In this document: positions 52,697 through 57,748 of the stretch, one piece after another
Numbering within the stretch: the first letter of the stretch is position 1
How the letters are laid out: each line of letters starts with the position of its first letter
NCBI GenBank assembly: GCA_963849325.1
Contig: CAWKHF010000005.1
Coordinates: forward strand, 416,001-480,000
Source: an uncultured Planctomycetota bacterium
Lineage (GTDB): Bacteria > Planctomycetota > Planctomycetia > Gemmatales > Gemmataceae
Direction: 5' to 3'
Length of the DNA stretch: 64,000 nt
Program-made: the position numbers and the translations under genes
Notes under the pieces: generated by a model
What the model saw: the letters and a program-made list of their open reading frames with translations, nothing else
Database searches by the model: none
What the model was told of the DNA's origin: nothing

Positions 52697-52824
52697 CAAG
52701 GTGACAAGGTGAGAATTATGGCGGGAAAAGTAAACAATCAGCTACATCCGGAGTTGGGGAAGACTGGCTTCTGTCTTTGTCTCCTTGTCACCTTGTCACC
52801 TTGTCACCTTGTCACCTTGTCACC
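52677..52824. repeat. Inverted pair of (GGTGACAA)n / (CCTTGTCA)n octamer arrays at the batD/batE junction
   Basis: About 4 units at 52677-52712 and about 5 units at 52783-52824. Confidence 0.9.
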
Positions 52825-53560
52825 ATCAGAGGTGGCCGAGTGCGCCGTAAGTGCCTTTCAGGAGGGCGTGCGTCTGCGCCAGGCCGCGGACCAGGCTCGA
52901 CCGCACTTCCGCGCCGCCGCCGCCTCGTTTGACGAACTGCGTCGTCGCGGCGTCCACAATCCCGCTCTGTATCGCAACCTGGGCAATGCCTCCCTTCTGG
53001 CCGGCGACCTGCCTCGTGCCATCCTGTCCTACCATCGCGGTCTGCGTCTAGCGCCGAACGATCTCGCCCTGCGCGAGGGTCTCGCCGAGGCGCGCGAACG
53101 GGTGGTGTATCCGGCGTCGGGCAGCCTGGGCCGGCCGCTCAGCGATCCGCGCCCGCCGTGGCTACCGCAGCCGCGAACGGAGTGGCTGCTCACGGCGTCG
53201 GCCCTCTGCTACACGTTGGCGTGGACGTGGGCGACGCGCTGGCTGATGGTGCGCCGCGGCCGGCTGCTGGCCGGGGGAATGGTTGCCCTGCTGCTCGCCG
53301 GGCTGCTGTCGGTTTGGCTGCTCACGCTCACACGGGAGGAGAGGGACCGGGACGAGCATCCGCTGGTGGTGATCGCGCGCGACGGCGTTCGCCTGCGCCG
53401 CGGCAACGGCATGGTGTTTCCGGCGCGCTATGACACGCCGATCCCTCGCGGCGTCGAGGCGCGGCTGCGGTTCGAGCGCGGCGGTTGGGTGCGGATCGAG
53501 CTGTCCGGCGGCGAAATCGGCTGGGTGCCGCGCGACGCCGTGCTGGTGGACTCTCCTTGA
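52709..53560 (+). CDS. batE: BatE-like TPR + SH3 protein
   Basis: LYRNLGNA..AILSYHRGLRLAP, two TMs, GWVRIEL..GWVP. Confidence 0.8.
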   Translation: MRIMAGKVNNQLHPELGKTGFCLCLLVTLSPCHLVTLSPSEVAECAVSAFQEGVRLRQAADQARPHFRAAAASFDELRRRGVHNPALYRNLGNASLLAGDLPRAILSYHRGLRLAPNDLALREGLAEARERVVYPASGSLGRPLSDPRPPWLPQPRTEWLLTASALCYTLAWTWATRWLMVRRGRLLAGGMVALLLAGLLSVWLLTLTREERDRDEHPLVVIARDGVRLRRGNGMVFPARYDTPIPRGVEARLRFERGGWVRIELSGGEIGWVPRDAVLVDSP

Positions 53561-53734: not shown

Positions 53735-55302
53735 ATGCCCGAAGTCCATCCGGAACGGCCGGCTCCCCATCTGCGGCACACGAGCGACCGGGAGATCCGC
53801 CGCTTGCTGGAGGTCATGCCGGCGGCGGCGTATACCTGCGACGCCGAAGGACTCATCACCTACTTCAACCGACGCGCGGTCGAGATTTGGGGGCGCGAGC
53901 CGACGGTGAACGATCCCATCGACCGCTACTGAGGCTCGTTCAAGCTCTTGACGATTGGTGGTTCACCAATCTTGCACGACCGCTGCTGGATGGCCCTGGC
54001 GCTCCGCGAGAACCAGGGCTACAACGAACAGGAAATCGTTATCGAGCGCCTCCGACGGCAGCCGCCGCACGGCCCTGGCCCATGCCAACCCCTTCTACGA
54101 CGAGTCCGGCCGGCTCGTCGGGGCCGTCAACATTCTTGTGGACATCACCGAGCGCAAAAAGGCGGAAGACGCCGTGCGCGAAGCCGATCGCCGCAAGAGC
54201 GAATTCCTGGCGCTGTTGGCCCATGAGCTGCGCAACCCCTTGGCTCCCCTCCGCAATGGCTTGCAGATCATGCGGCTGGCGAGCCACGACCGGACGGTTG
54301 CGGATCAGGCGCGGACCATGATGGAGCGCCAACTCGGACACATGGTTCGGCTCATCGACGACCTGCTCGACCTGTCGCGCATTACCAAGGGCAAGATCGA
54401 GCTGCGCAAAGAGCGGATCGATCTGGCGGCGGCGGTGCGCGACGCCGTGGAGACCAGCCGTCCCCTCATCGAGGCGTCCGGCCACCAGCTCACCGTCACG
54501 CTGCCGTCACGGCCGATCTTCGTGGATGCCGACCGCACTCGGCTGTCCCAGGTGTTCGCCAACCTGCTCAACAACAGCGCCAAGTACACCGATCGGGGCG
54601 GTCACATCGCGGCTGCGCGTCGAGCCGGAGGGCAGCGATGTCGTCGTCAAGGTCCGCGATGACGGCCTGGGCATCCCCGCCGACGTCTTGCCTGGTATTT
54701 TCGAGATGTTCACCCAGGTCGATCGCTCGCTGGAACGGTCGCAGGGCGGCCTGGGCATCGGACTGAGCCTGGTGCGTGCGTTGGTCGAGATGCACGGCGG
54801 CCGCGTGGACGCCCACAGCGGCGGTTGCGGAAGAGGAAGCGAGTTCGTTGTGCGCTTGCCCGTCTTGCTCTCGACCGCCCGAAAGACGCGGCCGGAGCAT
54901 GGCGCGGAGGAGGATGGGCATCGCTCCTCGAAATACCGTATCCTGATTGTGGACGACAACAAGGACTCGGCGATCAGCCTGGGTCTGATGCTGAAGATCA
55001 TGGGGCACGATACGCAAATGGCTCACGACGGCCTGGAAGGCGTGGCGATGGCGGCGGCGTTCCGGCCCGACGTGGTGCTGCTGGACATCGGCCTGCCGCG
55101 CTTGAACGGCTATGACGTTTGCCGCCGCATCCGCGAGCAGCCGGGCGGCGAGCGCGTGGTTATCCTCGCCCTGAGCGGCTGGGGCCAGGACGAGGACAAA
55201 CGCCGCTCCAAGGAAGCGGGCTTCAACTTTCACATGGTCAAGCCGGTAGACCCCGCCGAGCTGGAGAAGTTCCTGGCCGGACTGCTGCTGGCGCCGGCCT
55301 GA
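53735..55302 (+). CDS. PAS-HisKA-HATPase-REC hybrid kinase with in-frame TGA (53930-53932); candidate selenoprotein (indels near 54050 and 54610)
   Basis: PAS (AAYTCDAEGLITYFN..DRY*GSFKL..HDRCWMALAL..NPFYD..GAVNILVDITERK), AHELRNPL, NLLNNSAKYT, GLGIGL, LLDIGLP. The frame is intact across the TGA. Confidence 0.85.
53936..53979 (+). promoter_or_regulatory. Putative bacterial SECIS hairpin
   Basis: Perfect stem GATTGGTG(53953-60)/CACCAATC(53964-71) with a GTT loop starting after 28 nt downstream of the TGA. Possible lower stem TCGT-CAAG / CTTG-ACGA. Confidence 0.55.
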
Positions 55303-55308
55303 GTCCTA

Positions 55309-55360
55309 TCCGAGCCTGAAGCGTGAGCGAAGATCTCTTCGCTTACGCTTCAGGCTCGGA
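55309..55360. repeat. REP-like palindrome family A, copy 5
   Basis: Same arms; supplies the stop codon of the convergent MBL gene. Confidence 0.9.
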
Positions 55361-56284
55361 AAGATGGTTGTCCAGTCCCGGCAGCAATGGCTGGACCGGC
55401 TGTGCGCGGGAGGAGCGGCGTCCCGAGGACCGTCGCGCACGAACGGATCGAGCGGCGGCGCTCAGATGCAGCGTCGCGCCGGCGGCATCTTGCGCGGCGG
55501 TGCGCAGCTCGACGGGGAAGCCCAGCTCATCCAGCAGCGCCTGCGCCGCCGCGCGGGCCAGGGTCGGACGGTTGCAATCGCGGCTCAGGTGCAGCTGCAC
55601 CAGGTAGCGAAGCCGATCAGGCGTTGAGCGCTCCAGCACCGCCCGCACCAGGCCGACGGCCTGGGCGTTGGACAGATGGCCGTCGTCGCCCAGGACGCGC
55701 TCGATCAGCCGCGGCATGCGGCCGCTGGAACGCTGCAAATCCACGTCATGATTGAACTCGACGGCCAGCAAATCGACATCGGCTAGGTGGCCGGCCAATT
55801 CGTCATCCCAGCAACCCAGGTCGGCGACGTAGCCGATCGTCCCGCGTCGGCCGAACAGGTCCGCCGTTCCCTCTAGCCGAAAACCGAAGGTGGCGCCGCT
55901 ATCGTGTCGCACCGGCAGCGCCCGGCAGCGCAGCCCCGGCGATGGCTCGAAGTCCTGGTGCGACTCGAAACAGCGGACCCGGCCGGCGTCGTGCAGGGCG
56001 AGGAAGCCGTCGGAGTAGGTGCGCAGGACGGTGTGATGGGCGGCATGACACCACAGGGGGATCCGGTGGCGATGCAGGTGCAGGATAGAGGCATCCTTCC
56101 AATGGTCGGAGTGCGTGTGCGTCAAGAGGACAGCATGAACGGCGGCCCACGAGAGTCCGGCCGCCGACAGGCGGGCGGCCAGCTGCCGCGGTCCCAGGCC
56201 CACGTCGATGAGTACGCCGAAGCCGCCGGACTCCACCAGGCAGGCATTGCCGCCGCTGCCGCTGGCGAGTGTCGTGAACCGCAA
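55343..56284 (-). CDS. MBL-fold metallo-hydrolase (YycJ/WalJ-like)
   Basis: LASGSGGNA, THTHSDH, VRHD, EFNHD, GHLSN, HLS..N. Confidence 0.9.
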   Translation of the reverse strand: MRFTTLASGSGGNACLVESGGFGVLIDVGLGPRQLAARLSAAGLSWAAVHAVLLTHTHSDHWKDASILHLHRHRIPLWCHAAHHTVLRTYSDGFLALHDAGRVRCFESHQDFEPSPGLRCRALPVRHDSGATFGFRLEGTADLFGRRGTIGYVADLGCWDDELAGHLADVDLLAVEFNHDVDLQRSSGRMPRLIERVLGDDGHLSNAQAVGLVRAVLERSTPDRLRYLVQLHLSRDCNRPTLARAAAQALLDELGFPVELRTAAQDAAGATLHLSAAARSVRARRSSGRRSSRAQPVQPLLPGLDNHLSEPEA

Positions 56285-56956: not shown

Positions 56957-57748
56957 GTGGACGATCTCCTCAATCTGGTGCCCCGCTACAAACGTCGCCG
57001 CTCTGCTGGTAAGGCCGTCAACCACGCCCTCGTGGAGCGGCTAAGCAAGGACGTTCTCGACGAAGGGGCAAAGAAACTCGGCATCCTTCAGGGCAAGACC
57101 CTTGTCCTGGATTCGGAAGATGAGCTGGCGATCCTCATGGACTTTTGCATCCATGATGTCCGCCGCAACGGACGCACGGCCGTGGAGTCGTTCTTTCCCC
57201 ACGCGCCCTACCCTCCCGATTCGGAGGAAATGGCCTATCTGACCACCCTGAAACAGGCTCAGTATTCCGTGTTCCTCATCGAGCGTGTGGAACGCGGTTG
57301 CGGTATCGAGGTGCGCGACCTGTGGCGGGACGGCACGAAATTCATCATGGACGTCAGCTTCGGCAACACGGCAAGCCCTCGGATGGTGCTCGCCACGCGC
57401 CTCGTTCCCTTTGAATCGGTGTTCACCACGACCGGCGCGCCCCTTCCGCTGGGCGTACTGCCCAACACCTGGGCCGCATCGCCGTTGCAGGGCTTGCTCG
57501 AAAAGATGAAAGGAGTAGACGGGACCGGCCGGTCGGCGGAACAAATCAGCGAGTCGGTCGCCACCCTCCTTCGGACTTTCCTCAAGGCGGGCGCGGGCGA
57601 GAACGTGAGGTATGCGAACCCGGACGAACTTCCTTCCCCGCGGCGCCGACCGTCTTCTCCCGCTCCGAGCGGGCACGTCGGCCGCAACGATCCCTGCCCT
57701 TGCGGTAGCGGCAAGAAATTCAAGAAATGCTGCGGACTTGGCAAATGA
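56957..57748 (+). CDS. SEC-C motif (zinc-binding) protein
   Basis: C-terminal GRNDPCPCGSGKKFKKCC. Confidence 0.85.
   Translation: MDDLLNLVPRYKRRRSAGKAVNHALVERLSKDVLDEGAKKLGILQGKTLVLDSEDELAILMDFCIHDVRRNGRTAVESFFPHAPYPPDSEEMAYLTTLKQAQYSVFLIERVERGCGIEVRDLWRDGTKFIMDVSFGNTASPRMVLATRLVPFESVFTTTGAPLPLGVLPNTWAASPLQGLLEKMKGVDGTGRSAEQISESVATLLRTFLKAGAGENVRYANPDELPSPRRRPSSPAPSGHVGRNDPCPCGSGKKFKKCCGLGK

Follow-up and report, generated by a model that had tools for sequence, protein, structure and literature searches.

The window analysed here, a stretch of 64,000 nucleotides (contig C5, positions 416001-480000) of an assembly from an uncultured member of the Gemmataceae (Planctomycetota), encodes a PAS-HisKA-HATPase_c-REC hybrid sensor histidine kinase whose PAS domain is interrupted by an in-frame TGA. 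Our comparisons indicate that this TGA is very probably a genuine selenocysteine (Sec) codon that is decoded as Sec. The best explanation of the homologous sequences is that Sec replaces the most conserved cysteine of a very widespread PAS subfamily. We regard the gene as a member of a putative selenoprotein family for which our searches found no description, the presumably cytoplasmic PAS hybrid histidine kinases of the Gemmataceae. The assembly comprises 8.16 Mb in 14 contigs, is 84.7% complete and has a GC content of 64.9%.

The in-frame TGA and its homologues

Read from the ATG of the kinase gene, the frame runs through 65 sense codons that end in NDPIDRY, reaches the TGA and continues with GSFKLLTIGGSPILHDRCWMALAL, with no frame change around the TGA. 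A six-frame search of the same genome with residues 1-104 revealed no paralogue. Matches at E ≤ 1e-20 were present in 33 of 252 Gemmataceae species genomes, and in ten of the 252, namely the genome of the window and nine others, a single TGA lies inside the match. The TGA column is identical in all ten of these genomes and reads DR[YF]-TGA-G[ST]F. We refer to homologues with TGA at this column as Sec forms and to those with cysteine as Cys forms. The column holds TGA in two, Cys in 44 and Leu in one of 47 public genome-contig loci, and TGA in eight, Cys in 71 and Trp in one of 80 metagenome loci. Of the 153 pooled rows, 130 have Cys at this column and 20 have TGA; the other three have Trp, Leu and Tyr, respectively. 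The residues that are neither Cys nor Sec are encoded by TGG (Trp) in L186, TTG (Leu) in L090 and TAC (Tyr) in L036. After removal of duplicates by comparison of 60-nt sequences, 17 distinct Sec-form sequences remained. Among 400 sampled genomes of other Planctomycetota two matches were found, neither with a stop, and no Sec form was found outside the Gemmataceae in the sampled genomes and contig collections searched; the scans of contig collections used peptide patterns that missed most of the Sec-form genomes.

An earlier note on this DNA, made without database searches, had described the uninterrupted frame around the TGA, had named a cysteine as typical of this position in the PAS subfamily, and had proposed that TGA be sought in homologues and the Sec genes in the genome. 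The frame is as it described, the cysteine motif that it gave proved correct, and TGA turned up at the same column in nine other Gemmataceae species genomes and in metagenome contigs. This recurrence also bears on one alternative, namely that the TGA arose through faulty sequencing or assembly or as an isolated nonsense mutation. The assembly is rich in errors, but the same-column TGA is found in 16 other distinct sequences from independent assemblies, including short-read metagenome-assembled genomes and a metagenome contig of 119 kb, and we regard this alternative as effectively refuted.

The reading frame continues far beyond the TGA. It contains 453-456 open codons 3' of the TGA in L023, L024, L026, L027 and L029, through PAS_4, HisKA, HATPase_c and Response_reg, and 453 open codons in the metagenome Sec forms L110 and L112. 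The frame is open as far as the end of the locus in L096, L102 and L105, and to the end of the contig in the metagenome Sec forms L120, L111, L145 and L173. Earlier ends were observed in two further metagenome Sec forms, L135 (402 codons) and L115 (242 codons), and in L099, whose genome assembly has 10 contigs and a completeness of 64% and in which the frame closes 135 codons past the TGA. Over 136 pairs of Sec forms the ratio of non-synonymous to synonymous changes (pN/pS) was 0.24 upstream of the TGA (codons 24-65) and 0.40 downstream of it (codons 67-104). These comparisons show, in silico, that purifying selection across species has conserved the UGA together with the frame before and after it. 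A structural model of the PAS domain of the orthologue, based on a 105-sequence alignment, has a predicted local distance difference test score (pLDDT) of 95.3 and forms a single PAS fold that spans the position of the TGA.

The components of the Sec system that the earlier note had listed are all present in the genome: selD (387 bits), selA (287 bits), selB (314 bits) and a tRNA-Sec with anticodon TCA (72 bits). Both selA and selB are found in frame pieces, consistent with indel errors of the assembly. The same genome encodes a canonical selenoprotein, the formate dehydrogenase alpha subunit FdhA (G000:C10:540688-543804). Its motif ARI-U-HSASV contains an in-frame TGA, and a hairpin with a GGUCU loop lies 18 nt past this codon. 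Across the family, selA was detected in 234 of the 252 Gemmataceae genomes, including all ten Sec-form genomes.

TGA is also the terminal stop of these kinase genes, as seen in the window copy and in L023, L024, L026, L027 and L112. A change of the genetic code, with TGA reassigned, is ruled out by these terminal stops.

The hairpin downstream of the TGA

The TGA is followed by a hairpin that resembles a selenocysteine insertion sequence (SECIS). Its perfect 8-bp stem consists of GATTGGTG (53953-53960) and CACCAATC (53964-53971), which enclose a GTT loop (53961-53963). The hairpin lies 20 nt past the TGA, its loop starts 28 nt past it, and the minimal hairpin folding energy is -8.7 kcal/mol. 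According to PMC13188914, the bacterial SECIS (bSECIS) model requires a loop of 3-9 nt, a stem of 4-16 bp, G[G|U] at the opening of the loop, a spacing of 16-37 nt and a minimum free energy of -7.5 kcal/mol or lower. With its GUU loop, 8-bp stem, 28-nt spacing and -8.7 kcal/mol, the hairpin falls within this consensus.

The hairpin is part of the coding sequence, and takes in the final base of the Thr73 codon and codons 74-79, which specify I-G-G-S-P-I. The codons used are rare in the genome: the share of ATT among the Ile codons is 12.6%, and the corresponding shares are 9.7% for GGT (Gly), 2.4% for TCA (Ser) and 5.3% for CCA (Pro). Under the codon usage of the genome, the joint probability of ATT, GGT, GGT, TCA and CCA is 1.5e-6.

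A corresponding hairpin was found in all 16 Sec forms examined, a set that left out the window's own copy, which has the same hairpin. In each of the 16, the stem measures 6-9 bp with G-U pairs allowed, and its GTT loop begins 25-32 nt past the TGA. When stems of every kind were considered in 114 non-Sec forms, the best stem reached 3-5 bp in 85 forms, 6-7 bp in another 27 and 8-9 bp in the remaining two, and none of the 114 has a stem of at least 8 bp with a GTT loop at that place.

The Sec forms carry one of two stems. In group A (15 sequences), pairing is kept in 111 of 112 cells. Changes from U-A to C-G on both sides are seen at two pairs, and one-sided changes to wobble at three. The paired changes are synonymous, GTT/GTC occurring with CCA/CCG and GGT/GGC with TCA/TCG. 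As controls, sliding the pairing reduced the paired cells to 25-61%, and the covariation score was reached by one of 500 shuffles. These pair counts were made on the 15 group-A rows only (alignment A2), because MAFFT had misaligned the hairpins of two further Sec forms (alignment A1), which we describe separately as group B. This group consists of L102:1693-1752 (genome G107) and L173:261-320, and has another stem, GACGGATC-GTT-GATCCGTC, with the same GUU loop. The group-B stem lies 4 nt further downstream of the UGA, is encoded by D-G-S-L-I-R-H and has one mismatch in L173. The protein also differs between the forms: group A has Gly-Gly where Cys forms have mostly Asp-Gly. In the model, these residues form the turn of a small beta-hairpin.

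Taken together, the comparisons show in silico that selection on the RNA preserves a GUU-loop hairpin 25-32 nt past the UGA. The earlier note had pointed to the 8-bp stem, to the G-first loop after 28 nt and to the atypical codons, and had suggested a search for covariation. These observations were borne out, and the hairpin proved to be conserved with compensatory changes.

The nearest Cys form, L025:1378-1761 (genome G054), has kept the hairpin sequence save for one mismatch (GAT for GGT). It looks like a SECIS remnant left after a change from Sec to Cys, or like a SECIS precursor.

A FastTree tree of 150 rows and a quick IQ-TREE maximum-likelihood tree of 65 rows, with the trait columns kept, were calculated. 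The latter left out 88 of the 153 rows, which were duplicates, Sec forms of less than 150 aa, shorter than 330 aa or less than 60% identical. The resolution of both trees is poor. In the IQ-TREE tree the window gene groups with L023 and L112 (support 99). We favour a single origin of the Sec forms, followed by reversions or recombination, because the group-A hairpins all share one sequence; this history is not established by the trees.

Several observations weigh against Sec decoding. The Sec forms do not form one clade, and the 65-row maximum-likelihood tree implies ten label changes, at least four of which are forced by well-supported branches. Trp, Leu and Tyr each occupy the Sec column in single homologues, which indicates that the residue at this column is not indispensable in every lineage. 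The co-occurrence with selA is consistent with Sec decoding but does not discriminate, because 234 of the 252 genomes have selA. The hairpin of the window folds with a z score of only -1.14 when a stretch of 71 nt is considered, and 26 of 200 shuffled sequences fold equally well. Genome-wide, 8,180 of 178,988 TGA triplets (4.6%) precede a hairpin of at least 8 bp in bSECIS geometry, or 0.5% if 3-nt loops alone are counted, and a loop of 3 nt is the lower limit of the bSECIS consensus. Finally, the window copy of the kinase gene contains two frameshifts, which are considered below. The hairpin of the window by itself is thus weak evidence; its codon choice alone stands out, and the comparative evidence is strong.

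If the UGA were a true stop, the conserved hairpin would be a regulatory RNA that acts, for example, in pausing, re-initiation or mRNA stability, and the products of the gene would be a peptide of 65 residues and possibly a kinase that lacks its N-terminal part. UGA is indeed the normal stop of the same kinase genes, and chance hairpins after TGA are common. However, one PAS fold takes in both the 65 codons before the UGA and the part after it, both sides are under purifying selection in the same frame, and the column is Cys in 130 of the 153 homologues. As the hairpin also matches the bSECIS consensus and the genome has a complete Sec system, we consider a true stop highly improbable.

Another explanation is that the UGA is read through without selenium by a near-cognate Trp or Cys tRNA, and that the hairpin merely stimulates this process. 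Structure-stimulated read-through is known from other systems, and the TGG (Trp) at the column in L186 suggests that another residue is tolerable there. However, L186 clusters with Cys forms and not with Sec forms, the G[G|U] signature of SelB-binding hairpins is found in the loop of 17 out of 17 sequences, and the Sec machinery is nearly universal in the Gemmataceae. Near-cognate read-through is therefore very unlikely, and decoding of the TGA as Sec remains the reading that we follow below.

Gene layout, frameshifts and neighbouring genes

As assembled, the kinase gene can be read from the ATG at 53735 to its terminal stop TGA (55300-55302) only with the use of three frames. The region 53735-55302 is not a single open frame in this assembly, even with the internal TGA read through. 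Compared to its closest orthologue L023, which is 79% identical, the window copy has two 1-nt insertions downstream of the TGA (Table 1), which were absent from the earlier note. With the two inserted bases discounted, the alignment to L023 shows no further interruption by an indel or a stop after the frameshifts. In the same assembly, the essential gene rpoB (G000:C1:334967-338611) is split into four frame pieces and selA (G000:C12:1294158-1295519) into three. Because these genes are likewise split, we attribute 1-nt indels, at about one per kb, to the assembly, and the two insertions in the kinase gene are likely to be assembly errors. Any frameshift in the window should be read in the light of such frequent errors. 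One sequencing run was matched to the genome (word share 0.06), and the pieces of contig obtained from it were mostly less than 90% alike and came from other organisms.

The insertions could also be real, in which case the selenoprotein family would exist but this copy would be a decaying pseudogene, no longer made into protein. The three frames that are needed to read the gene and the two insertions relative to L023 fit this explanation. On the other hand, the four pieces of rpoB and the three of selA show that such a density of breaks is typical of the assembly, there is no further indel or stop relative to L023, and every domain is detectable. A pseudogene is in our view unlikely.

The PAS, HisKA, HATPase_c and receiver domains are all still detected by Pfam on the window's own frame pieces. 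In the intact orthologue (P0005), PAS_4, PAS_9 and PAS score above the Pfam cut-offs, together with HisKA, HATPase_c and the receiver domain. No further domains were found in the Pfam scans of the orthologue or of the window pieces, and no search was aimed at membrane segments.

Table 1 Features of the kinase gene in the window, with positions in the window, strand and supporting evidence.
Feature	Position	Strand	Evidence
PAS-HisKA-HATPase_c-REC hybrid sensor histidine kinase gene	53735..55302	+	Translations, Pfam, DNA alignment to orthologue L023
PAS domain (PAS_8/PAS_4 matches), split by the first frameshift	53795..54158	+	Pfam: P0004 residues 21-62, P0002 residues 21-68
Cys35 codon (AYTCD), nearly invariant in the subfamily	53837..53839	+	Alignment A3, column C18
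In-frame TGA, codon 66, proposed selenocysteine codon	53930..53932	+	Same column in 17 distinct sequences; Cys in other homologues
SECIS-like hairpin, stem 53953-53960 / 53964-53971, GUU loop 53961-53963	53953..53971	+	Fold, pairing, rare codons
His81 codon, nearly invariant in the subfamily	53975..53977	+	Alignment A3, column H63
Cys84 codon (CWMA), 18 residues after the Sec codon	53984..53986	+	Alignment A3, column C66; Ser in Sec form L145
First frameshift, a T that the orthologue lacks (CGCC[T]CCGAC)	54051	+	Alignment to L023; frames
HisKA phospho-acceptor domain, H-box LAHELRNPL	54195..54389	+	Pfam: P0002 residues 81-145, E = 1e-13
HATPase_c domain, split by the second frameshift; start estimated from the orthologue	54528..54864	+	P0003 residues 28-113; orthologue residues 264-375
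Second frameshift, one extra G within GCGG relative to the orthologue, exact base ambiguous	54609..54612 (~54611)	+	Alignment; frames
Response-regulator receiver domain	54940..55269	+	Pfam: P0003 residues 139-248, E = 1.7e-21

The neighbouring genes encode a TPR protein (52709-53560), an MBL-fold protein on the reverse strand (55343-56284) and a protein with a C-terminal SEC-C motif (56957-57748). No gene for a cognate response regulator adjoins the kinase gene, and the neighbours give no hint of its function. Directly 3' of the kinase stop, before the convergent MBL-fold gene, lies a 24-bp palindrome (55309-55360, -51.8 kcal/mol). One of its arms occurs eight times in the genome, both strands counted, and contigs of another metagenome pile up at it. 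It could represent either a bidirectional terminator or a palindromic element that is repeated in the genome.

Possible function and comparison with known systems

Following the known course of bacterial Sec insertion, SelB-GTP-Sec-tRNA(Sec) would bind the hairpin and insert Sec at the UGA, and the whole kinase of about 520 aa would be made. If either selenium or the hairpin were lacking, translation would end after 65 residues. Synthesis of the kinase would then depend on selenium, as follows from the insertion mechanism.

Sec/Cys pairs mark redox-active or metal-binding cysteines. In the 105-sequence alignment, Cys35, the Sec/Cys column 66, His81, Cys84, Trp85 and Met86 (window numbering) are nearly invariant, among other residues. 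According to the secondary structure of the model, residue 66 lies in a loop after a short helix that follows the first two strands, and His81 and Cys84 lead into the next helix. From the rule on Sec/Cys pairs, and from the near-invariant Cys35, His81 and Cys84, we infer that the selenol may be the sensing residue of the PAS domain. It could act as a redox or electrophile switch, either by forming a selenenylsulfide with a neighbouring cysteine or through an intermolecular bond as in ArcB; alternatively, it could be a ligand to a metal or cofactor. The state of the selenol would set the autophosphorylation of the kinase and, in turn, the phosphorelay via the C-terminal receiver.

The redox-switch reading is tentative and somewhat less likely than not. 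Substitutions among the Sec forms argue against it, as Cys84 is Ser in L145, His81 is absent in L029 and L135, and Cys35 is absent in L026, L111 and L173. The earlier note had combined Sec decoding with a redox or metal switch formed by Sec and the cysteine 18 residues later. The proposed decoding withstood the computational tests that the note itself had named as possible refutations; the specific Sec-Cys84 switch found no support, and the Ser in L145 speaks against an obligatory pair.

No solved relative of the PAS domain was found by sequence search and no close one by profile search, and Foldseek returned generic PAS and LOV matches. The Sec-carrying stretch, the beta-hairpin, His81 and Cys84 were not aligned to any solved chain in the sequence-profile search.

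At an E-value of 1e-30 or lower, the PAS subfamily comprises 1,226 proteins from many phyla with many output domains. The outputs joined to the Cys-form PAS module (P0006-P0125) include HisKA, HisKA_3 and HWE/HisKA_2 kinases, GGDEF, STAS and CheB/CheR fusions. The names given to the homologues are generic among the best 120 of the 1,226 ('PAS domain S-box protein', 'sensor histidine kinase'), and no NCBIfam model reached its cut-off for the kinase.

To our knowledge, prokaryotic selenoproteins are almost all oxidoreductases or metal-handling proteins. Neither a kinase nor a PAS protein nor a two-component sensor appears, in the available text, among the 119 prokaryotic families in Table 1 of a 2026 selenoprotein catalogue (PMC13188914). 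None of the terms 'histidine kinase', 'two-component', 'sensor' and 'signal transduction' occurs in the main texts of PMC13188914, PMC13326102 and PMC12013277, and 'kinase' does not occur in the available supplementary material of PMC12013277 or in the available part of the supplement of PMC13326102. The main text of a paper on planctomycete selenoproteins does not contain 'histidine kinase' (PMC4807772). Full-text literature searches that paired either selenocysteine or selenoprotein with the terms histidine kinase, sensor kinase and PAS domain returned genome papers only, and in the accessible text of one of these the terms stand apart.

If Sec decoding holds, this signalling protein of soil planctomycetes would be the first selenoprotein sensor kinase, and selenium biology would extend to signal perception. 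Because Sec/Cys pairs point to redox-active or metal-binding cysteines, one residue is singled out as the likely sensing site of a large uncharacterized PAS subfamily, and the signal of this subfamily would become experimentally approachable. The gene would also be a clean natural example of a SECIS in a coding region that shapes the protein, with Asp-Gly turned into Gly-Gly at a beta-turn and with two alternative stems. A wider reading joins these elements: the kinase would be the first natural selenoprotein in two-component signalling, in which the selenol in the PAS pocket is a hyper-reactive, reversibly oxidisable sensor of peroxide, electrophiles or metal, the UGA and hairpin tie synthesis to the selenium supply, and the same column is the hitherto unrecognised sensing cysteine of a PAS subfamily of more than 1,000 members from many phyla. 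We put this forward as a possibility, somewhat less than probable as a whole.

Among known systems, FdhA of the same genome is the nearest selenoprotein for comparison. Both genes have an in-frame UGA, Cys at the same column in homologues and a G-first small-loop hairpin 16-37 nt downstream, and the kinase, like FdhA, would depend on selA, selB, selC and selD. They differ in that the kinase is a signal-transduction sensor and not an oxidoreductase or metal enzyme, and in the loop, which is GUU at 28 nt in the kinase and GGUCU at 18 nt in FdhA.

Among the non-Sec homologues, identity over the PAS domain is 46-73%. The Cys homologues share the motifs AYTCD, DR[FY]-C-GSFKL and H..CWMA and often have a HisKA-HATPase-REC output. 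Unlike the Sec forms, they carry a cysteine codon (TGC or TGT) at the column and lack a conserved hairpin, and the G-G of group A is mostly D-G in them.

In LOV domains and in photoactive yellow protein (PYP), the chemistry is carried out by one Cys that lies between the PAS helices. The best Foldseek matches of the Sec-form PAS domain include LOV domains (E about 1e-6, template modelling (TM) score 0.6-0.7), whereas PYP is not among the matches listed. Identity is only 12-22%, and no cofactor is known for the PAS domain of the kinase.

ArcB, the redox-sensing PAS hybrid kinase of E. coli, forms quinone-dependent intermolecular disulfides between cysteines of its PAS domain. The kinase is not an ArcB as defined by the equivalog model NF008302, for which it scored 196.9 bits against a cut-off of 838. 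In contrast to ArcB, it has no membrane anchor or Hpt domain in the Pfam result, where no search was aimed at membrane segments, and its reactive residue would be Sec. Both are hybrid kinases with conserved PAS cysteines, and ArcB offers the best analogy for a chalcogen switch that may control autophosphorylation.

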